Shown here: positions 49,870 through 59,111 of the stretch, one piece after another
Layout: the number at the start of each line of letters is the position of its first letter
Numbering within the stretch: the first letter of the stretch is position 1
Origin: Desulfatiglandales bacterium
Lineage (GTDB): Bacteria; Desulfobacterota; DSM-4660; Desulfatiglandales; Desulfatiglandaceae
NCBI GenBank assembly: GCA_963662465.1
Contig: OY759599.1
Location: 352,001-416,000, forward strand
Length of the DNA: 64,000 nucleotides
Reading direction: 5' to 3'
Position numbers and translations under genes: made by a program
Notes under the pieces: model-generated
Told to the model about the DNA's origin: nothing
Databases searched by the model: none
Seen by the model: only the letters and a program-made list of their open reading frames with translations

Positions 49870-50402
49870 GGTTCATCGCGGATTAACGTGAAATTTGGTT
49901 TGACTGGATTTTGGCCCGTGCTGTAGGTGCGAATTCAGTCGTACAGAGCAGATGCCCTTTGTGCGACTAAAGTTGCACCTACAATCGTTCCAAAAGTTAG
50001 GGCTTCACGGCAATCCGCGAAGAGGCAAGATGACCCATAGCGGTTTAACGTGAACCGTGGATTGAAACCCTTCGATGAATTTCACCATATTTTCATCAAA
50101 ATAAATGCTCCTACAAAAAAACCTATTGACTTTTTCATTTTTTCGGAATAGCGAATGATTGAATTGAGTCAGCGCTATGATTTTGCGATTAACGTGAAAC
50201 TTGTTTCTGATGATGGTTTCACGGGGCCTGTAGGTGCGGCTTCAGCCGCACAGCATTGCTTTTTTAGGTTGTTCTTTTTGCGAAGTGTTCCGATTGTGTT
50301 GTACTCCGATTGTAGGTGCGACTTTAGTCGCACATTTCATTACGTTTTGCAATGCTTTCAAAAGGTTTTGGGGTCGGGTGATTTAATGAGGAGGGAAGGG
50401 CG

Positions 50403-51479
50403 GTGAAAAAAGAGATGAATCGGTTTTTAACGATTTGGGCGATTGGTTTGGCCGTGGTTTGCCTGTCTTTTGGAGCCCATGGGCGTGCGGCGGAAAAAGA
50501 CTGTAATGTGTTCATCAGTTGCGGGAATCCCTACGACTGCTGCAACAATGGAACCCAGGAACAGGACGGCAACTGCACCTGGTGGGCGTGGAAGATGATG
50601 TATGACCGGTGGGGGTATCGGGCGCCCACCTGGCACAATGCCGGTCAAGTATGGTTGGATGGCGCGCAACAGGCTGGGTTGCCCACGGGTGATGGAAATT
50701 CTCCCAGAGTCGGGTCCGTTTTTGTCCAATCCGGGCATGTGGGGTGGGTTTTCAAGGTGGACGGGAATACCATCTACACCACTCAAATGAACTGCGGATA
50801 TCCGGACCAGTACACTAGCGAACAGAACGATTACAAAACCTATGACATTACTACGCAAACGTTCCTGGGTTTCATCTATCCGCCGGACGGCTCCGGGCCG
50901 GTGCCGGATACGGGTGTGACAAAATGTTATGACACGGCCGGAAACGTCATCATCTGTCCGGATTCCGGTGAGGACTATTACGGCCAGGACGGCAATTACA
51001 CCATCAACCCGCCGTCCTATACCAAGCTGGATTCGCAGGGTTATGTTCTATCGGTTGCCGCCACATCCTGGGCCATGGTTCTAGACAATGTCACCGGGCT
51101 GTACTGGGAGGCGAAACAGAACAAGGACGGTGCCTCACATTACGATAATCCCCATGATGCCGACAATACCTATAACTGGTACGACGCGCAGAATATCTTC
51201 ATCAAGGCCCTAAACGACGCCAATTTCGGCGGCCATTGCGACTGGCGTTTGCCCACCAACAAGGAGCTGGCTTTTCTGGTGGATTACAGCATCGCGTATC
51301 CGGGGCCGACCATCAACATGACCTATTTTGCGAATACGGTGTCGTCCTATTACTGGTCGTCTACTACCTATGCCAATACTCCGGACGACGCCTGGCTCGT
51401 CGATTTCTACGATGGCTACCGCCTCTGGTACTGTAAGTCCTACAGCGATTACGTTCGGGCGGTTCGCGGCGGACAGTGA
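50403..51479 (+). CDS. DGR target 1: signal peptide, CHAP domain and Lcl/DUF1566 C-type-lectin-fold domain
   Basis: GNCTWWA...GHVGWV (CHAP Cys/His); DNVTGLYWE, DWRLPTNKEL, YWSSTT, VRAVRGGQ. Confidence 0.9.
   Translation: MKKEMNRFLTIWAIGLAVVCLSFGAHGRAAEKDCNVFISCGNPYDCCNNGTQEQDGNCTWWAWKMMYDRWGYRAPTWHNAGQVWLDGAQQAGLPTGDGNSPRVGSVFVQSGHVGWVFKVDGNTIYTTQMNCGYPDQYTSEQNDYKTYDITTQTFLGFIYPPDGSGPVPDTGVTKCYDTAGNVIICPDSGEDYYGQDGNYTINPPSYTKLDSQGYVLSVAATSWAMVLDNVTGLYWEAKQNKDGASHYDNPHDADNTYNWYDAQNIFIKALNDANFGGHCDWRLPTNKELAFLVDYSIAYPGPTINMTYFANTVSSYYWSSTTYANTPDDAWLVDFYDGYRLWYCKSYSDYVRAVRGGQ
51338..51478 (+). repeat. DGR variable repeat VR1
   Basis: 141-nt ungapped match to TR; 22 mismatches, 21 opposite TR adenines. 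Confidence 0.97.
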
Positions 51480-51526
51480 TCGATTATTCGGTAATTTGAT
51501 GCTTTGTTCATTTGGAGCTGAAAATC

Positions 51527-51925
51527 TTGGCAAGGTATGAACATCTACCCCTATACAAAGCGGCCATGGACATGGGAGTCTATCTCGAAGGTATGGTCCA
51601 TAACTTCAGCCGGTATCACAAATATACCACCGGTCAGGAACTGCGTAGCCTGGCCCGCGAAATCATCAAGCTTATCATCTGGGCCAATTCGGTCCGGGAT
51701 AGGAGCGACATCCTGTCGGAACTGGTGATCCAGTGCGAAATGCTCAAGACCATGCTCTTTTTTGCCAAGGAAACCAAGGCGATTCAGAGCTTCAAGGCAT
51801 TTTAGCACGCCTCCGGTCTGGCGGTGTTGCTTTGCAGACAGAGCGAGGGCTGGCTTAAAAGCAGTCGAAAGGGCCCGAATCGCCCACCCCCGGATGGGAA
51901 AGGGGGGCCGGCGAGTGCGCCATGA
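51527..51925 (+). pseudogene. avd: Avd-like four-helix-bundle accessory gene with in-frame TAG at 51803-51805
   Basis: MARYEHLPLYK...FSRYHKYTTGQELR; past the stop the frame continues HASGLAVLLCRQSEGWLK to TGA at 51925. Confidence 0.85.
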
Positions 51926-52243
51926 ACACTGTGCGCCTCCCCCGCCTGGCGGTTCATGCAGGCATATTCATGCAGGGCGTGGAGGGATCCGCGCCCGGTG
52001 GAAGGAAATTCATTGCGGCCTGCACAGCTGTGGGTGCGACTGTAGGTGCGACTTCAGTCGCACAGCAACGTCGTGCGCCAATACCGGGTATGGCTTGTGC
52101 GAATAAATTCGCACCTACAGTGCAACCGTCCCGACGGCGGATGTTTTGACCCCGGGATGGGTTGTGCGGCTGAAGCCGCACCTACAGCACAGTGCCACAG
52201 CACAGCGCTATTGTGGGTTTCCTTCATCAAGTGGGGAGGTGAT

Positions 52244-52384
52244 GGTGTCGTCCAATTACTGGTCGTCTACTACCAATGCCAATAATCCGAACAACGCCTG
52301 GAACGTCAATTTCAACAATGGCAACGACAACTGGAACAATAAGTCCAACAACAATTACGTTCGGGCGGTTCGCGGCGGAAAGTG
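52244..52384 (+). ncRNA. DGR template repeat (TR)
   Basis: 17 AAY codons in the target frame; lies between avd and the RT core; matches VR1 and VR2. Confidence 0.97.
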
Positions 52385-54009
52385 TTCCCCTGCTGTCCTT
52401 CCGGTCAATTTATGATGCGTATCTGGATTGCCGAAGGAGAAAGCGCAATACCATCAACGCGCTCAGGTTTGAGGCCGATTTGTTGACCAACCTCTTTGAC
52501 CTGGCGCTGGACCTGCAAAAGGGACGGTATCAGCCCTCCCGCTCTGTCTGCTTTGTCACACGGTCCCCGAAGCTCCGCGAGGTATTCGCCGCGGACTTCA
52601 GGGACCGGATCGTTCATCATCTGGTGGTGCGGGAACTGGAGAAGATATGGGAACCGCGCTTTATTTATGATTCTTATGCGTCCAGAAAAGGGAAAGGCAT
52701 CCACTCGGCCGTGGACCGGCTTCAGGGATTCATGCGGAAGGTGACCCGCAACGGCAAGCGGGCCGGCTTTTTTCTGCAACTGGACATTCGGTCTTTCTTC
52801 ATGAGTATAGACAAACGCATTTTGTTTTCCCTGTTTGACCGGGACCGGAAAACATCGGATGTGCTGCGGTGGGTTTTGTCGGTACTCATTTTTCATGATC
52901 CCACGACGAATTATTGTTTCAAGGGAAACGGGAGATTGCTGGACGCCATTCCGCCCCATAAAACTCTTTTCAAGACCGGCCTGTACAAAGGGCTCCCTAT
53001 CGGAAATCTGACGAGCCAGTTTTTCGCCAACGTCTATCTCAATGAACTGGATCAGTTTGTCAAACATGAGCTGAAGTGCCGGTTCTATTTGAGGTATGTG
53101 GATGATTTTATCCTATTGGCGGAGAGTGAAGATCAACTGTTGAAATGGCGTCAGGCGCTGAGCGGGTTTCTGGAAGACCACCTGGCGCTACGTCTGAGAG
53201 GCGGTGACCGGGTGCGCCGGGTTTCTGACGGTGCGGATTTTCTGGGGTATGTGACCCGCCCCGGGTACCGTCTGGTGCGAAAACGCGTGGTGAACAATTT
53301 TAAATATGTGCTGGCGCGAACGCGGGACAAAATGGTGGTGGAGATGGCGGGTGACGCAGCGGCCGTCGGTGCGGCAGGACGTGCGGTTGCCGGTGCGACT
53401 GTAGGTGCGACTTCAGTCGCACAACCGGAAAAGAAAATCACCCGCGTCACCGGCGCCCCCGCAGGTGCGAATTCATTCGCACAGCCCACCAGGGTTGCGG
53501 TCCCGGGCATCCGCACACTCACGATCCGTCCCCGAATGGTCCTGCATTTGCGGCAGGTCCTGGCCTCTTACCTGGGCCATTTTCAGCATGCGGACAGCCG
53601 GTATCTGGTTGAGAGTATTTTCACAAAACACACCTGGCTCAGGCAGTTGTTTGTGTTTGACCGGGGTAAACTGAAGATGAAAGCCCTTCCCGTTCAAACC
53701 TTTCCATGCATGCGGGAGCAGGTGTGGTTTTTTAGAAGGCATTATCCCGGATTCATACTTTTGTTCCGGGTGGGCCGCTATGTGGAGCTTTACGGAAAAG
53801 ATGCTCGGATTTTGCGGGAATATGCCCATTTGAAGCTAGTGAAACAGCATCGGGGCCTGCGGGATTCGGTGGGGTTTCCGGTGAGCATGACCCGGGGCAT
53901 ACGCCGAAAGCTTTTAATGAGGGGTCACCGAACGGCGCTGGTGGCCCAGGGCGTCACCGGCGGGCGGGTGAGACGCCGGTATGTGGCAGAGCTGGCGTTT
54001 GCGACCTGA
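52276..54009 (+). CDS. DGR reverse transcriptase with in-frame REP insertion and C-terminal MutS-N-like extension (start uncertain, possibly near 52390)
   Basis: PKLREVFAADFRDRIVHH, GLPIGNLTSQFFANVYL, RYVDDF, GADFLGY; tail ILLFRVGRYVELYGKDA. Confidence 0.95.
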   Translation: MPIIRTTPGTSISTMATTTGTISPTTITFGRFAAESVPLLSFRSIYDAYLDCRRRKRNTINALRFEADLLTNLFDLALDLQKGRYQPSRSVCFVTRSPKLREVFAADFRDRIVHHLVVRELEKIWEPRFIYDSYASRKGKGIHSAVDRLQGFMRKVTRNGKRAGFFLQLDIRSFFMSIDKRILFSLFDRDRKTSDVLRWVLSVLIFHDPTTNYCFKGNGRLLDAIPPHKTLFKTGLYKGLPIGNLTSQFFANVYLNELDQFVKHELKCRFYLRYVDDFILLAESEDQLLKWRQALSGFLEDHLALRLRGGDRVRRVSDGADFLGYVTRPGYRLVRKRVVNNFKYVLARTRDKMVVEMAGDAAAVGAAGRAVAGATVGATSVAQPEKKITRVTGAPAGANSFAQPTRVAVPGIRTLTIRPRMVLHLRQVLASYLGHFQHADSRYLVESIFTKHTWLRQLFVFDRGKLKMKALPVQTFPCMREQVWFFRRHYPGFILLFRVGRYVELYGKDARILREYAHLKLVKQHRGLRDSVGFPVSMTRGIRRKLLMRGHRTALVAQGVTGGRVRRRYVAELAFAT

Positions 54010-54316
54010 TCGAGTATAGGTGCGGCTTGTAGGTGCGACTTCAGTCGCACAACAAATCCCTCGTTGTGCGACTAAAGTCGCACCTACAGTGGTGGTCTAG
54101 ATGGAGGTGATGGGAAAAATTGAAATGGGATTTACGGGTTGGGTTTTGATGACCAGTGGTCTCAAGAGATTGTGTTGTTGCGGGGTGGTATGGCGGATTG
54201 CTGTGCGACTGAAGTCGCACCTACAGCAGGACAAGGCTGGAGGGAATGAGGATGGAGTGTTGTGCGACTAAAGTCGCACCTACAGTTAGGAGCGTCCAAA
54301 TGCGGGGGATGCATCG

Positions 54317-54796
54317 ATGAAGGGAAGGGGTGCTCCATTATATCCGCCAGGCTATGGGGCGTTGCGGGCAGGCCGGTGGAGCGAATCGGGGCGGTGTTAC
54401 ATGATTACCACGGTTACCGCCGACCGTGCGCCGGTTTTTCGCGATCTGTTTGCCGGTCGTTGCGTTGTTCGGGAGATGATGCGGTTGCACGGTGATGGAG
54501 TGGTGGCATCTCTGGCCTGGGTGATCATGCCTGATCACTTTCACTGGCTGGCGGTGCCGGCGAGTCCATGGAGCCTTTCAAAAGTCATTCAATTGCTGAA
54601 GGGGAGATCCGCGAGACGTGTGAATGAATATCTGGGTCGTACGGGCAGCCTCTGGCAGCCGGCGTTTTATGATTACGCGGTTCGGAAGGACGAAGATCTT
54701 CGCAAAATGGCCCGATATATCGTGGGTAATCCGATCAGAGCGGGTTTTGTGAAGCGGGTTGAGGAATACCCCCTGTGGGATGCGGTGTGGTTGTGA
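54317..54796 (+). CDS. rayT: REP-associated tyrosine transposase (RAYT)
   Basis: YMITTVT, WVIMPDHFHWL (HUH), WQPAFYD, RYIVGNPIRAG; flanked on both sides by REPs. Confidence 0.92.
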   Translation: MKGRGAPLYPPGYGALRAGRWSESGRCYMITTVTADRAPVFRDLFAGRCVVREMMRLHGDGVVASLAWVIMPDHFHWLAVPASPWSLSKVIQLLKGRSARRVNEYLGRTGSLWQPAFYDYAVRKDEDLRKMARYIVGNPIRAGFVKRVEEYPLWDAVWL

Positions 54797-55513
54797 TCGG
54801 TGTGTATGGCTCGATCCGATGTGTGGCCGGTTCACGATTGTAGGTGCGGCTTGTAGGTGCGACTTCAGTCGCACAACAAATCCTCACTGTGGGACTGAAG
54901 TCGCACTTACAGGAGGACAAGGCCGGAGGGAATGAGGATGGGGTGTTGTGCGACTAAATTTTCACCTACAGTCGTATTCCAAATGAAGGTGACGGGAAAG
55001 ATTGAAATGGGATTTACGGGTTGGGTTCTGATGGTCGGTGGTCTCAAGAGATCGTGTCGTTGCGGGGTGGTAAGGACGATTGTAGGTGCGGCTTCAGCCG
55101 CACATTTGGGCTGCGGATGATGGATGTACGGCGGGTGTTGTGCAACTAAATTTGCACCTACAGTGTTGTGCGACTAAAGTCGCACCTACAGTCGTATTCC
55201 AAATGAAGGTGACGGCAATGGGGGGTTGTGGGCAGGCGGATTATTGTGCGACTAAAGTCGCACCTACAGCACGGAAGCATCTCTTTTGTTGCGAAAAGCA
55301 TGGGCAAAGGATGTGACTATCAGAAGCACCGGTCCATGGCAAAGAGGGGTCGGAAGAGCGTCATTTCATTTTAGCGACGGGCATAAATATTTGGCGGCCG
55401 CATTGAAGGGCGCGGGGAAAATGGATCAGGAAGAGGCAGGCGTGATACGGATGCCTCTTTTGTCGGTACGGTTCCATTTACCCGTGTCTGTGCTGCCGTA
55501 GAAGGAGGAAGGC

Positions 55514-58500
55514 ATGAAAGCAATGCGATGGGCAACAGCCGTCATGGCCCTGTGGGTCGTAATCACGATCACGCAAACGGCGTACGCGGCCTTTGTGGAC
55601 AATGGCAACGGCACGGTGTCCGATACGCGAAGCGGCCTCATGTGGCAGCAGGATACGGCCAGGGATGCTGGGGGAAACTATGATACCATGACCTGGAAGG
55701 AGGCCTTGGCCCACTGTGCCAATCTGGAGCTGCCGCCAGGCGGCTATACCGACTGGCGCCTGCCCACCATCAAGGAGATTCGATCCCTGGTGGATTGCAG
55801 TCAGTATAGTCCCGCCATTAATCGCAATGCCTTTCCCGATACGGTGTCGTCCAATTACTGGTCGTCTACTACCTATGCCAGTAGTCCGAACTACGCCTGG
55901 AGCGTCTATTTCTACAGTGGCGGCGACTACTGGGGCAATAAGTCCTACTACGGTTGCGTTCGGGCGGTTCGCGGCGGACAGTCTGGGGCATTCGGTTCTT
56001 TGGATCATTTGGTCATTTCGGTGCCGGCGGGCGCCCAGTCGGTTGGGGATGATTTTACCATCACCGTCACCGCCGAGGATGCGGCAGGGCTGCAGGTGCT
56101 GGATTTTGCGGGTAGCGTGAACCTTTCGGCCGAGGGGAATACCGTTGACCCCACCGCAGTGACCCTCTCCGGCGGGCATGGGAGCGCGTCCATTCGCATC
56201 TTGAACGTCGGCAAAACCCGGCTCAACTGCGACGGTTATGGGGCCTACGGCAACAGCCGGTATTTTGACGTGGCCGGGGAGAATCCCTGCATCGGGTCCA
56301 TCGAGGGGAGCGTGGTGGACTGCCGGGGCACCCGCGTGAGCCAGGCCACGGTGCGGGCCCGTGACGTGGAAGGGGACGTGATGGCGAGCACCACCACGGA
56401 CGGTAACGGAAGGTTTACGCTGGCAGACTTGACCTGCGGGCCGTATGATATCGAGGTTGAAAAATCCGGCAAAACCGCCACCGGCATCTGGAAGACGGTG
56501 GGCGGACATTACTGCACCACGGCCTTCGGGATCGAGCTGCCTTTGAACTGCGGAACTGAACAAGCGGTGGTGGTATTGGTCCCCGGCATCATGGGGTCCA
56601 GCGAATCGTCATGGGGGGGGGTTCCCAGCTTGCCGGCCGGTGCACCGGCACGCGCTTCGGATTTGCACATTCATGCCGAGGGGACAACCGGTTTTAAAAA
56701 ACTCAAAGAAGAACTGGAAGCGGCAAATTTTACCGTGGTGGAGTGTCCCTGGGACTGGCGGCTCAATTGTGAGCGGGCCTACCGGGAATACCTGAAGGAC
56801 AAAATAGACGAAGCCCTGGCGGATTCAGGCGCCGACAAGGTGTATGTGGTGGCCCACAGCATGGGGGGGCTTATGGTACGGGCCTACATTCAGAACAAGG
56901 AGAATTATCGGAACGACATCGCCAAAGTGGCCTTTGTGGGCACCCCGCATCAGGGGTCCTGCAATCCCTATTACATCTGGGAGGGGGGCGATCCCCTGGC
57001 GGTCGACGATATGGTCGGTCCGGCACTGGACTTTTATACGCGGACCACCGAGAAATTGTGGGGGAATTACAAGAGAGGCTGGAACACTGAAAACCACGAT
57101 GAGATCCGTTCGTTTATCAGAAGCGACGTGCAGTCCCTGCTGCAACTGATGTATGCGGAAAAATTCCTGACGGATATGCGTTCTTACTGGGCCGTGGAAA
57201 CCCCCGGCAATACCAACGACTGGCTGGACGACTTAAACGAAGGCGATGGGAATTACAACAAGCCGTACGATGTCATGAGCAAGGACGGTTCAAGCGGCAA
57301 CAAGGTGGAGGCCCGGTGCTTTGTGGGAGATTCGGCTGCTTCCACCATTCGGTGGGTCAAGATGGCCCGCACGAGAGGCAGTTCCGGGGCTACCGATGAC
57401 CGGTATGAGGACGGTATTCCACGAAATGAACGGCCTCAGAAAGATAACGTTTTATGGGGAAGCGGCGACAATACGGTTCCCTATGACAGCGCCGTTTATC
57501 CTTACACGAAGGGCTGGGCCCAATTGTGCGCGAAAAAATCCCAAAAAAAACACAGTGAACTGGTGAAGGATTTTGCGACGGACATCGTGCTTTTTTTGGA
57601 CCCCGATGCAGTGGTTTCCTCAAATGCCGCCACAAGGGATGACCCGACTCCGCCCGAACTGTCGGTTTCCATCACCGGCGGGATGCGCGTCCAGATCATA
57701 GATCCCGAGAACCGCAAAACCGGCGCCGACCCGGCCACGGGCCTGCCGGTGCAAAATATCCCCGATTCTATGTGCGCCTTTGATGTGGGAGGCGGCGGCG
57801 CGGCGGTGCAAAGCCCCGCGGCCGGGGCCTACCGGATCACTTATTTTGGCCAGGCGGACCGGGATTTCCAGATCTCGCTAGACTACCAGGATGACACCCT
57901 GACGGAGACCTACAGCTTTCAGGGGTTTCGGCCGGCAGACGCACAGACCTTTACCGTGAGTCTCAACCCCGCAGCCTCTCCCCGTCTCACCATCACCCCG
58001 TCCTGCAAGGCTCCCACCAATCTGGAGGCCAACCCCTACACGTCCGGCGAAACCCCGAAAACCCGCCTTTCCTGGTCCGCAACGGACGAAGCCGGCCTTT
58101 CCGGCTACAATGTCTATGGGGTGGCCCAACTGTCTCCCTATTTCTCCAAAGTGGCCACCGTGGCATCGAATGTCACCACTTATGATACATCAGACACCTG
58201 GAGTTCCGATGCCGCCACCACTGTCATGACCTATGCGGTGACGGCGGTGAAAACCGACGGCACGGAAAGCTTTTTTTCCAATACGGCCCAGAACGATGAC
58301 CGGGACCATGACGGCGTGACCGACGCACGGGAAGCAACAGACGGCACCAACCCGGACAACCCGGATTCGGACGCGGATGGCCTGAATGACGGGAAAGAAT
58401 CGGCATACGGTACCAACCCCCTGGTGAAGGACACGGACGGGGATACCTGGAATGACGGCGATGAAGTATCCGCCGGCACCGATCTCCTGGATCCTTATTC

Positions 58501-58789
58501 CATACCCCGAAGCGTGGGGTATGTGGACCCGGCCGGTGGCTGCAACGGCAACACCCCGTGCTACACAACCATACAGGCGGCCGTGGAAGGCGCCAAAAAC
58601 GGGGGCGTTGTTGAGATTAAGCAGGGAACCTATAGCGAAGAAGTGACGCTCGGGGCTGACAAGCAGGTGATGCTTCAGGGGAATTGGAACGATTCATTTA
58701 ACACCCAGAGCGGCATAACGACGCTGACGCACGCACCCAAAGCGCCCCTGGGGCGATTGACGCTGCGGGATCTGCTGGTGAAACCGTGA
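55514..58789 (+). CDS. DGR target 2: signal peptide, N-terminal Lcl/DUF1566 domain, Ig-like domains, alpha/beta hydrolase (lipase/LCAT-like), FN3-like domain and Asp-rich Ca-binding repeats
   Basis: FVDNGNGTVSD..GLMWQQ, DWRLPTIKE, YWSSTT; VPGIMGS, AHSMGG, GTPHQGS, GDNTVP; DxDxDG repeats. Confidence 0.9.
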   Translation: MKAMRWATAVMALWVVITITQTAYAAFVDNGNGTVSDTRSGLMWQQDTARDAGGNYDTMTWKEALAHCANLELPPGGYTDWRLPTIKEIRSLVDCSQYSPAINRNAFPDTVSSNYWSSTTYASSPNYAWSVYFYSGGDYWGNKSYYGCVRAVRGGQSGAFGSLDHLVISVPAGAQSVGDDFTITVTAEDAAGLQVLDFAGSVNLSAEGNTVDPTAVTLSGGHGSASIRILNVGKTRLNCDGYGAYGNSRYFDVAGENPCIGSIEGSVVDCRGTRVSQATVRARDVEGDVMASTTTDGNGRFTLADLTCGPYDIEVEKSGKTATGIWKTVGGHYCTTAFGIELPLNCGTEQAVVVLVPGIMGSSESSWGGVPSLPAGAPARASDLHIHAEGTTGFKKLKEELEAANFTVVECPWDWRLNCERAYREYLKDKIDEALADSGADKVYVVAHSMGGLMVRAYIQNKENYRNDIAKVAFVGTPHQGSCNPYYIWEGGDPLAVDDMVGPALDFYTRTTEKLWGNYKRGWNTENHDEIRSFIRSDVQSLLQLMYAEKFLTDMRSYWAVETPGNTNDWLDDLNEGDGNYNKPYDVMSKDGSSGNKVEARCFVGDSAASTIRWVKMARTRGSSGATDDRYEDGIPRNERPQKDNVLWGSGDNTVPYDSAVYPYTKGWAQLCAKKSQKKHSELVKDFATDIVLFLDPDAVVSSNAATRDDPTPPELSVSITGGMRVQIIDPENRKTGADPATGLPVQNIPDSMCAFDVGGGGAAVQSPAAGAYRITYFGQADRDFQISLDYQDDTLTETYSFQGFRPADAQTFTVSLNPAASPRLTITPSCKAPTNLEANPYTSGETPKTRLSWSATDEAGLSGYNVYGVAQLSPYFSKVATVASNVTTYDTSDTWSSDAATTVMTYAVTAVKTDGTESFFSNTAQNDDRDHDGVTDAREATDGTNPDNPDSDADGLNDGKESAYGTNPLVKDTDGDTWNDGDEVSAGTDLLDPYSIPRSVGYVDPAGGCNGNTPCYTTIQAAVEGAKNGGVVEIKQGTYSEEVTLGADKQVMLQGNWNDSFNTQSGITTLTHAPKAPLGRLTLRDLLVKP
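55843..55982 (+). repeat. DGR variable repeat VR2 (codons 111-156 of 1091)
   Basis: 140-nt ungapped match to TR; 19 mismatches, all opposite TR adenines. Confidence 0.97.
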
Positions 58790-59111
58790 GGGGCACATGG
58801 AGACGGGAGCTGGTTGCGGATGTAGGTGCGTCTTCAGCCGCACAGCTTGTGCGACTAAAGTCGCACCTACAGCCCGGGCTGAAACATATTCAAAGCGCGG
58901 TTTCACGTTAATCCGCGATGAACCGTTTCATGGAGCGGGCGTATCGGGCAGCCTGACCCGGAGAAGCTTCAAAGGTTAATTGATCCACATACTCCTTTTT
59001 CACCTCCCCCATGAGCCAGGTCTTGTCGGTCTGCCTGGGGCTCAGATGGTGAAATGGTCTTGACTCCTCATGCGAACAGGACTCTGTTTATCCGCATGTT
59101 TCGGGTCCTGC

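Follow-up and report, generated by a model that had tools for sequence, protein, structure and literature searches.

A diversity-generating retroelement with a variable repeat near the start of a 1091-codon gene for a predicted lectin-headed, lipase-like protein in a Desulfatiglandales bacterium

The retroelement and its repeats

Analysis of 64,000 nucleotides (nt) from a Desulfatiglandales bacterium (GenBank assembly GCA_963662465.1, contig OY759599.1, positions 352,001 to 416,000 of the forward strand; hereafter the window, with positions counted from its first letter) showed that it holds a genuine diversity-generating retroelement (DGR), with differences between template repeat (TR) and variable repeats (VRs) falling almost entirely on TR adenines and with an adjacent reverse transcriptase (RT) gene. 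The window is part of one 8.16-Mb genome contig; the genome is referred to as G000. The cassette runs in the order target gene TG1 (carrying VR1), an Avd-like gene, the TR, an RT gene with a MutS_I domain, and target gene TG2 (carrying VR2). The GC-rich 3' end of a VR, the initiation of mutagenic homing site, is abbreviated IMH and its counterpart in the TR IMH*. An initial annotation of this DNA had placed VR2 at residues 111-156, near the N terminus of TG2, with some 935 codons behind it and with retrohoming signals inside the coding sequence.

50403..51479 (+): TG1, 358 amino acids (aa), CHAP domain and C-terminal Lcl_C domain, ending ..VRAVRGGQ* (Pfam CHAP 4.6e-09, Lcl_C 1.9e-31)
51338..51477 (+): VR1, 3'-terminal in TG1, unlike the TR at 22 positions
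51512..51805 (+): Avd-like accessory gene, 97 aa, between TG1 and the TR (Pfam bAvd 7.6e-08, 33.3 bits)
52244..52383 (+): TR, 44 adenines, 17 AAY codons, 3' end with IMH* (GGAAAGT)
52426..54009 (+): DGR RT with C-terminal MutS domain I (Pfam RVT_1 3.7e-16, MutS_I 1.4e-11)
55514..58789 (+): TG2, 1091 aa, one continuous open reading frame (ORF), with full-length and syntenic orthologues
55843..55982 (+): VR2, codons 111-156 of TG2
L002:2991-3130 = G000:C1:591990-592129: VR3, 3'-terminal in a small Lcl_C gene, with a TTTG flank as in VR1 and VR2

ORF scanning and translation of 55514-58789 (+) gave 1091 codons with zero internal stops, preceded by an AGGAGG box 7 nt upstream of the ATG at 55514. 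VR2 occupies whole codons 111-156 and is followed by 935 codons in the same frame, as had been proposed, and the translation contains the peptide ..VRAVRGGQ-SGAFGSLDHL.. exactly as first quoted. The RT frame is open from 52276, within the TR, and its translation contains YVDD and IGNLTSQ, the latter of which we take to be a DGR hallmark.

A repeat search returned three in-register copies (51327-51477, 52233-52383 and 55832-55982), of which the middle one is adenine-rich and is the TR while the two flanking ones are VRs; BLAST of the TR against the genome found VR3 187 kb away, at the end of its small Lcl_C gene. Comparisons were made over a 140-nt core (TR core 52244-52383), across which VR1, VR2, VR3 and the TR are mutually about 85% identical. 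VR2 differs from the TR at 19 positions, 19 of 19 at TR adenines (44 adenines in the TR; hypergeometric P = 1.0e-11). VR1 has 22 differences, 21 at TR adenines and one at a G, and VR3 has 25, of which 23 are at TR adenines. Since all 96 non-adenine positions of VR2 match the TR, against only 77% identity in the Lcl_C coding sequence adjoining the VRs in the paralogues, we infer that VR2 is, or recently was, rewritten from the TR.

Read in the frame of the VRs, the TR contains AAY at 17 codons and AAG at two, 143 and 156. The suggestion that AAY codons shield the downstream domains from stops is sound in that a stop could arise from these two AAG codons only, and it describes general DGR codon logic rather than a property of this gene. 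VR1 and VR2 both have AAG at codon 143. Codon 156 is CAG in the VRs and AAG in the TR (GGACAG in all three VRs against GGAAAG); because the three VRs agree and the same contrast of A in the TR with C in the VR occurs at the IMH of four related elements, codon 156 marks the constant difference between IMH and IMH* and does not belong to the mutagenised sites.

Domains and continuity of TG2

TG2 is probably a secreted protein, whose first mature domain is C-type-lectin-like (Lcl_C) and has VR2 as its last 46 codons. The predicted order is signal peptide, Lcl_C head, linker, Ig-like domain, CarboxypepD_reg, LCAT-like lipase and TSP3 repeats.

55514..55588 (+): Sec signal peptide, predicted by eye (..TQTAYA, then AF), at the same position in orthologues
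55610..55972 (+): Lcl_C (DUF1566, PF07603) C-type-lectin-like domain, aa 33-153 (Pfam 4.2e-36, 124 bits against a cut-off of 34.9)
55982..56020 (+): codons 157-169, SGAFGSLDHLVIS, low-confidence linker (157-164) and first beta-strand (165-169) in structure models
56297..56476 (+): CarboxypepD_reg-like beta-sandwich, aa 262-321 (Pfam 1e-11)
56567..57229 (+): LCAT/PGAP1-like alpha/beta hydrolase (lipase-like) with AHSMGG nucleophile elbow, aa 352-572 (Pfam LCAT 6.8e-14, Abhydrolase_1 2.3e-08)
58364..58423 (+): bacterial TSP3 calcium-binding repeat, aa 951-970 (Pfam 5.4e-08)

The LCAT match (PF02450) scored 52.3 bits against a cut-off of 21, and the elbow region gave weak matches to solved lipases, with AHSMG aligned to the elbow of the putative lipase 2zyr. 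A model of the head (residues 26-172), built on an alignment of 37 VR-bearing Lcl_C domains, had a mean predicted local distance difference test (pLDDT) score of 89.8, and its best match in the PDB was 8q4e, the Legionella Lcl C-terminal domain (E = 3.1e-05), followed by many C-type lectin-like chains. In a second model, of residues 26-345 (320 aa, 13-row alignment), the Lcl_C part was poor, with pLDDT under 50, and interpretation was limited to the downstream domains; these form a confident beta domain from residue 165 onward, of which HLVIS (165-169) is the first strand and to which SGAFGSLD (157-164) leads as a low-confidence linker.

TG2 is a single gene and not a fusion artefact, which is ruled out by the existence of full-length orthologues. 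A search with residues 27-260 returned 853 proteins of 600-1910 aa, and among the 120 of these matches that were listed five (P0050, P0092, P0107, P0059 and P0047) span the query nearly fully. The five share the order Lcl_C, linker, CarboxypepD_reg and LCAT (P0092 without PF13620) as well as the linker motif SGxFGxLDHxVIS, and TSP3 is visible in the alignment of four of them, P0050 ending earlier. Syntenic orthologues of TG2, likewise lipase-type targets, follow the RT in loci L039 (the same as G052) and L057.

Assembled Logan contigs of sequencing runs X1 and X2 match the window letter for letter over 55186-55872 and over 55958-58879 or beyond; they cross the IMH into the linker and run past the stop codon at 58789, with neither a stop nor a frameshift after GGACAG. 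X1 and X2 derive from one sample and, with X3, from one study, and this identity is not independent support since the runs may be the assembly's own source data.

At positions within VR2 the contigs show alternative letters, all of which equal the paralogue VR3; they were rejected as real variation and ascribed to cross-mapping. Alternative letters over the TR are absent from VR1, VR2 and VR3 and were likewise rejected, being attributed by eye to cross-mapping from a second DGR of the genome. At window position 51432, a TR-adenine site in VR1, contigs of both X1 and X2 give T as well as G; the G matches no checked paralogue and may be a minority VR1 variant or may come by cross-mapping from an unchecked paralogue. 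In the RNA run X4 a small share matched, at low likeness.

The coding flank of VR2

The IMH of VR2 and the flank that follows it both lie in coding sequence.

55957..55982 (+): IMH, GC-rich 3' end of VR2, encoding VRAVRGGQ, equal to the TR except for C at 55979 (A in the TR)
55999..56018 (+): TTTG periodic repeats TTTGGATCATTTGGTCATTT after VR2, coding (codons 162-168)
51495..51513 (+): TTTG 8-nt periodic repeats after VR1, non-coding

Beside the IMH, the initial annotation had named a hairpin as a usual signal near the stop of target genes. DNA folding of the 86-nt flanks predicted none after VR2 or VR1, and hairpins there were rejected since both flanks fold no better than shuffled sequences (z = +0.45 and +0.62, respectively); the IMH and a conserved flank stand, the hairpin does not. 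What the 45 nt past the IMH do contain is TTTG every 8 nt, as TTTGATGCTTTGTTCATTT after VR1, TTTGATCCTTTGGTTATTT after VR3 and TTTGGATCATTTGGTCATTT after VR2. The repeats after VR1 and VR3 are non-coding because both genes end at GGQ* ahead of them.

Related elements were collected by a search of the phylum (401 genomes, RT relatives in 18) and by a contig scan (596 tblastn-confirmed RT relatives, 79 loci kept). One set of 10 fetched loci yielded TR/VR pairs in 6, and the set of 79 yielded them in 56, the latter set giving the 77 VRs on which the flank counts are based; L034, L035, L037 and L038 gave no TR/VR pair at the thresholds used. Related elements of other genomes also have these repeats behind their VRs, whether the flank is translated or not, and lack them behind their TRs; the RTs of the genomes that share the repeats are only 36-60% identical. 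At least two TTTG per 60-nt window were present in 44 of 77 VR flanks. The corresponding counts were 7 of 56 for TR flanks, 76 of 1540 for windows drawn at random from these loci and 26 of 677 for flanks behind the stops of other long frames. The spacing of successive TTTG was exactly 8 nt in 44 of 78 cases, two TTTG 7-9 nt apart occurred at 35 of 77 VRs (30 of 56 loci), and 44 units gave the consensus TTTG-R-T-N-A, i.e. TTTGRTNA.

Within G000 all five VR-bearing Lcl_C ends (5/5) have TTTG repeats and the TR has none; among 17 other complete Lcl_C ends, 12 have zero TTTG, three have one and two have two. This distribution suggests that the TTTG repeats are a VR-specific part of the target site. 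Both of the two-TTTG ends without a VR belong to small genes that stop right after the domain (G000:C1:5920414-5920779 and 6760367-6760726, both on the minus strand), one of them with a GC-rich palindrome as well. Neither gene gave a TR match with an adenine bias, and they may be orphan or former DGR targets.

Translated, the repeats read G-F-G-x-L-V-I-S. In the 14 codons after the VR of seven genes with an N-terminal or internal VR, Leu is encoded by TTG in 10 of 12 cases, compared with 79 of 465 over the rest of those genes (P = 9.5e-07). The proposal that the IMH and the element downstream of it double as a protein linker is supported by comparison, in that a conserved DNA flank that is non-coding after C-terminal VRs is coding here.

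Two variants of the flank were observed among the relatives. Three related DGRs, in L033/L050 (7995-8133 and 3933-4071), L054 and L063, have a VR followed by a 30-35 aa PEP-CTERM-like tail (VPEP, a hydrophobic stretch and a basic end, read by eye); as their flanks have no TTTG repeats, these targets must mark the VR otherwise. At L048, L060, L064, L085 and L093 the TTTG repeats sit between the IMH and a GC-rich hairpin; repeats and hairpin can thus coexist, both following the VR in several relatives.

Position of the VR in the RT clade

Among 24 loci with a long, MutS_I-type RT, six (G000 DGR1, G000 DGR2, G052, G035, L046 and L057) carry a VR followed by a long coding tail, of 84 codons up to the contig end in L046 and of 429-1355 codons in the remaining loci. 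Each of these six genes with the VR at the front lies directly downstream of the RT, and the upstream target has a C-terminal VR. A further internal VR was found at L110, next to a short RT. Spurious VR frames in the GC-rich loci L098, L100 and probably L042 were excluded from the N-terminal count, and 12 VRs had no assigned frame. The scans suggest that MutS_I-tailed RTs form a sizeable clade, in which the arrangement with the VR in front is less unusual than it is for DGRs generally.

The tails differ between loci: lipase in G000, G052 and L057, CARDB/fn3 in G000 DGR2, PKD in G035, and InlB-type repeats in L046 and L110. The Lcl_C-VR-linker module has thus been combined with several partners, and the expectation that such a head can be placed before different partners agrees with its union with at least four C-terminal architectures.

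The second DGR of G000 (L001, G000:C1:3595000-3607500, minus strand) is of the same type. Its downstream target is 1504 aa long, with Lcl_C at 35-147, a VR at 106-149 and then ..VRAGP-SGSFDYLIGQ. Its TR is without its 3' end and is followed by about 1.8 kb of small frames, the RT is truncated at the N terminus, and by these features the element looks decayed.

Inserted repeats and other genes of the cassette

REP-like hairpin repeats (GTAGGTGCGACTTCAGTCGCAC and its complement) are dispersed across the cassette, with copies over 49905-58852. One REP-like stretch lies in frame within the RT, near 53383-53431, between the RT and MutS_I parts (AGATVGATSVAQP..). The 1.5-kb spacer between RT and TG2 contains one further gene:

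54317-54796: REP-associated tyrosine transposase (RAYT) (NF047646, 138 bits)

In relatives the target follows the RT directly, without such a REP/RAYT spacer. CHAP, a cell-wall amidase/peptidase domain, is joined in TG1 to the diversified Lcl_C tail.

Interpretation and alternatives

We consider it likely that the DGR rewrites the N-terminal lectin head of the single-gene TG2, and that the IMH together with the translatable TTTG repeats marks the VR side. Mutagenic retrohoming would replace codons 111-156 of TG2, so that up to 17 AAY-templated residues would be varied on the binding face of the head while the 935 downstream codons (Ig-like, CarboxypepD_reg, LCAT-like lipase and TSP3) would stay constant. 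The outcome would be an enzyme with a re-aimable targeting head, the lectin-like domain directing a lipase-like enzyme at changing ligands; in TG1 the variable Lcl_C would likewise aim a CHAP cell-wall hydrolase. The VR side would be marked by the GC-rich IMH, with its fixed C against A in the TR, and by two to three copies of TTTGRTNA within about 45 nt downstream, and not by a hairpin. This repeat would tolerate translation, G-F-G-x-L-(x-x-L-)V-I-S serving as the linker and the first strand of the next domain. That the TTTG repeats can be translated as linker and strand would explain how members of this clade come to have a VR ahead of a long coding tail.

Several points weigh against this reading. 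The assembled contigs, which are blind to rare variants, hold no VR2 heterogeneity beyond the letters that match VR3. The bAvd match, at 33.3 bits, is below the curated Pfam cut-off of 40, and the REP-like insertion might impair the RT. Forty-two of 77 VR flanks, including those of all PEP-CTERM-like tailed targets, have no two TTTG 7-9 nt apart. Since related loci and paralogous VRs enter the flank statistics as though they were independent, the significance is overstated, the direction of the effect being clear nevertheless; the TTG bias could be partly inherited, since the targets of G000, G052 and L057 are orthologues. MutS_I was identified by Pfam for the two G000 RTs only and was deduced from the tblastn match length for the others. 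The lipase activity and the secretion of TG2 are predictions.

An unlikely alternative is that the TTTG flank has no part in retrohoming and is conserved as the relic of an ancestral Lcl_C gene end, for its peptide linker, or as an element of the mRNA or terminator type, with VR2 a genuine target recognised through its IMH alone. The peptide SGxFGxLDHxVIS is conserved in the orthologues, so that selection on the protein does exist, and the same 42 of 77 flanks without a periodic pair, with none among the PEP-CTERM-tailed targets, would also fit. However, the repeats are conserved in the non-coding flanks of C-terminal VRs in genomes whose RTs are only 36-60% identical, they are rare after TRs (7/56) and after other genes (26/677), the non-target Lcl_C junctions of G000 are mostly without them, and the coding versions show the TTG codon bias.

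We also think it improbable that VR2 is a fossil of an element since disabled, for example by the REP-like insertion within its RT or by the RAYT/REP block between RT and TG2, and that the head is at present a fixed binding domain. The in-frame insertion, the 1.5-kb REP/RAYT spacer where relatives show direct adjacency, the visible decay of the second DGR of the same genome and the contigs without VR2 heterogeneity speak for such a history, but VR2 has 0 differences at 96 non-adenine positions against 77% identity in the adjacent paralogue Lcl_C sequence, the frames of the RT, the Avd-like gene and all three targets are open, and minority variants would be invisible in contigs. That the 1091-codon frame is an artefact, whether of two genes joined by misassembly at the repeat or of a small Lcl_C gene with an independent lipase gene behind it, is very improbable: the VRs and the TR are alike enough (about 85% over 140 nt) to confuse an assembly and short-read contig graphs do break at the VR, yet the frame is open throughout, contigs span the IMH-linker junction to beyond 58789 unchanged, the architecture recurs in five database proteins and at two syntenic loci of other organisms, and the genome is one 8.16-Mb contig.

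Returning to the preferred reading, in which the TTTG repeats mark the VR side, we tentatively put forward a wider proposal, about which we are more doubtful than hopeful. TTTGRTNA repeats after the IMH may be an undescribed VR-side recognition element of a large group of DGRs with Lcl_C targets, many of them from uncultivated phyla and most without a Bordetella-type hairpin. Being translatable as a harmless G-F-G-x-L-V-I-S linker and strand, they would mean that the VR is no longer tied to the 3' end of the gene, so that a diversified lectin head could be mounted before enzymes, a lipase in TG2, or various adhesin-type tails, giving secreted envelope-degrading enzymes with re-aimable targeting.

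The same TTTG element occurs as non-coding and as coding DNA, which makes it a natural experiment. Lipase- and CHAP-bearing proteins are added to the DGR targets and point to variable targeting of envelope-degrading enzymes and not only to adhesion. In engineered DGR systems, a flank of the target site that can be translated would let a VR sit anywhere in a protein.

Comparison with known systems

DGR surveys attribute the near-universal C-terminal position of VRs to the need for non-coding cis elements. The premise that most VRs sit at the 3' end of the target agrees with Wu 2018 (PMC5758913), which places the great majority at the C terminus, with three N-terminal VRs among 372 DGRs and, in the CLec2 class, one internal VR in Ca. 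Magnetobacterium bavaricum (Table S1). Section 11 of that paper argues that the IMH of N-terminal and internal VRs must be constrained by coding, and Roux 2021 and Paul 2015 (PMC4372165) make the same cis-element argument. Coding constraint on the cis elements of such VRs is thus already in print and the concept of an N-terminal VR is itself published, which lowers the novelty of the present case. The rarity that the initial annotation gave to a front VR stands for DGRs overall and only in part for the MutS_I-type RTs, where such a VR recurs in the 6 of 24 loci above and in M. bavaricum.

The repeat flank and the enzyme-bearing targets seem to be the parts new to the literature searched. No description of a TTTG or AT-rich repeat flank of DGRs was found in the open-access literature searched, which is not proof that there is none. 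The terms 'lipase', 'LCAT' and 'CHAP' do not occur in the supplementary tables of Wu 2018, nor do these or 'DUF1566' occur in 11 of the 13 supplementary files of Roux 2021 (files 9 and 12 left out). As Wu 2018 reports that 127 of 372 DGRs, only about one third, have a hairpin formed by a GC-rich inverted repeat behind the IMH, the TTTG repeats are a testable candidate VR mark for the rest.

The nearest relatives in Wu 2018 are the only three DGRs given there with a MutS_I motif in the RT: M. bavaricum (FP929063), an uncultured Desulfobacterium (FR695874) and one from a bioreactor metagenome. They resemble the DGR of the window in their order, TG-Avd-TR-RT-TG or TR-RT-TG, in their DUF1566 targets and the C-terminal MutS_I motif of the RT, and in that two of the three lack the GC-rich stem-loop. 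In M. bavaricum the target after the RT is comparable to TG2 in that its VR is internal, some 400 nt from the start of a gene of 1434 nt. The 935-codon enzyme-bearing tail, the CHAP-bearing second target and the remote third VR distinguish the DGR of the window from these three.

Bordetella phage BPP-1, as summarised by Wu 2018 and Paul 2015, likewise has a GC-rich IMH at the 3' end of the VR, slightly unlike the IMH* of the TR, and extra VR-specific sequence downstream. Its VR lies at the 3' end of the gene and its downstream element is a hairpin or cruciform, whereas TG2 has no predicted hairpin and carries 8-nt TTTG repeats in the equivalent place, inside the coding sequence. The Nanoarchaeota DGRs of Paul 2015 also have a cis element past the VR within the target gene, selected as DNA and as protein; unlike that of TG2 it takes the form of hairpins whose loops are GRA, and the archaeal targets belong to a different type.

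For the head itself, the C-terminal domain of Legionella pneumophila Lcl (8q4e) has the same fold and belongs to the same Pfam family, and LdtA is a DUF1566-class DGR target (Wu 2018). In both Lcl and LdtA the domain is C-terminal, whereas in TG2 it is the first mature domain and the enzyme comes after it.

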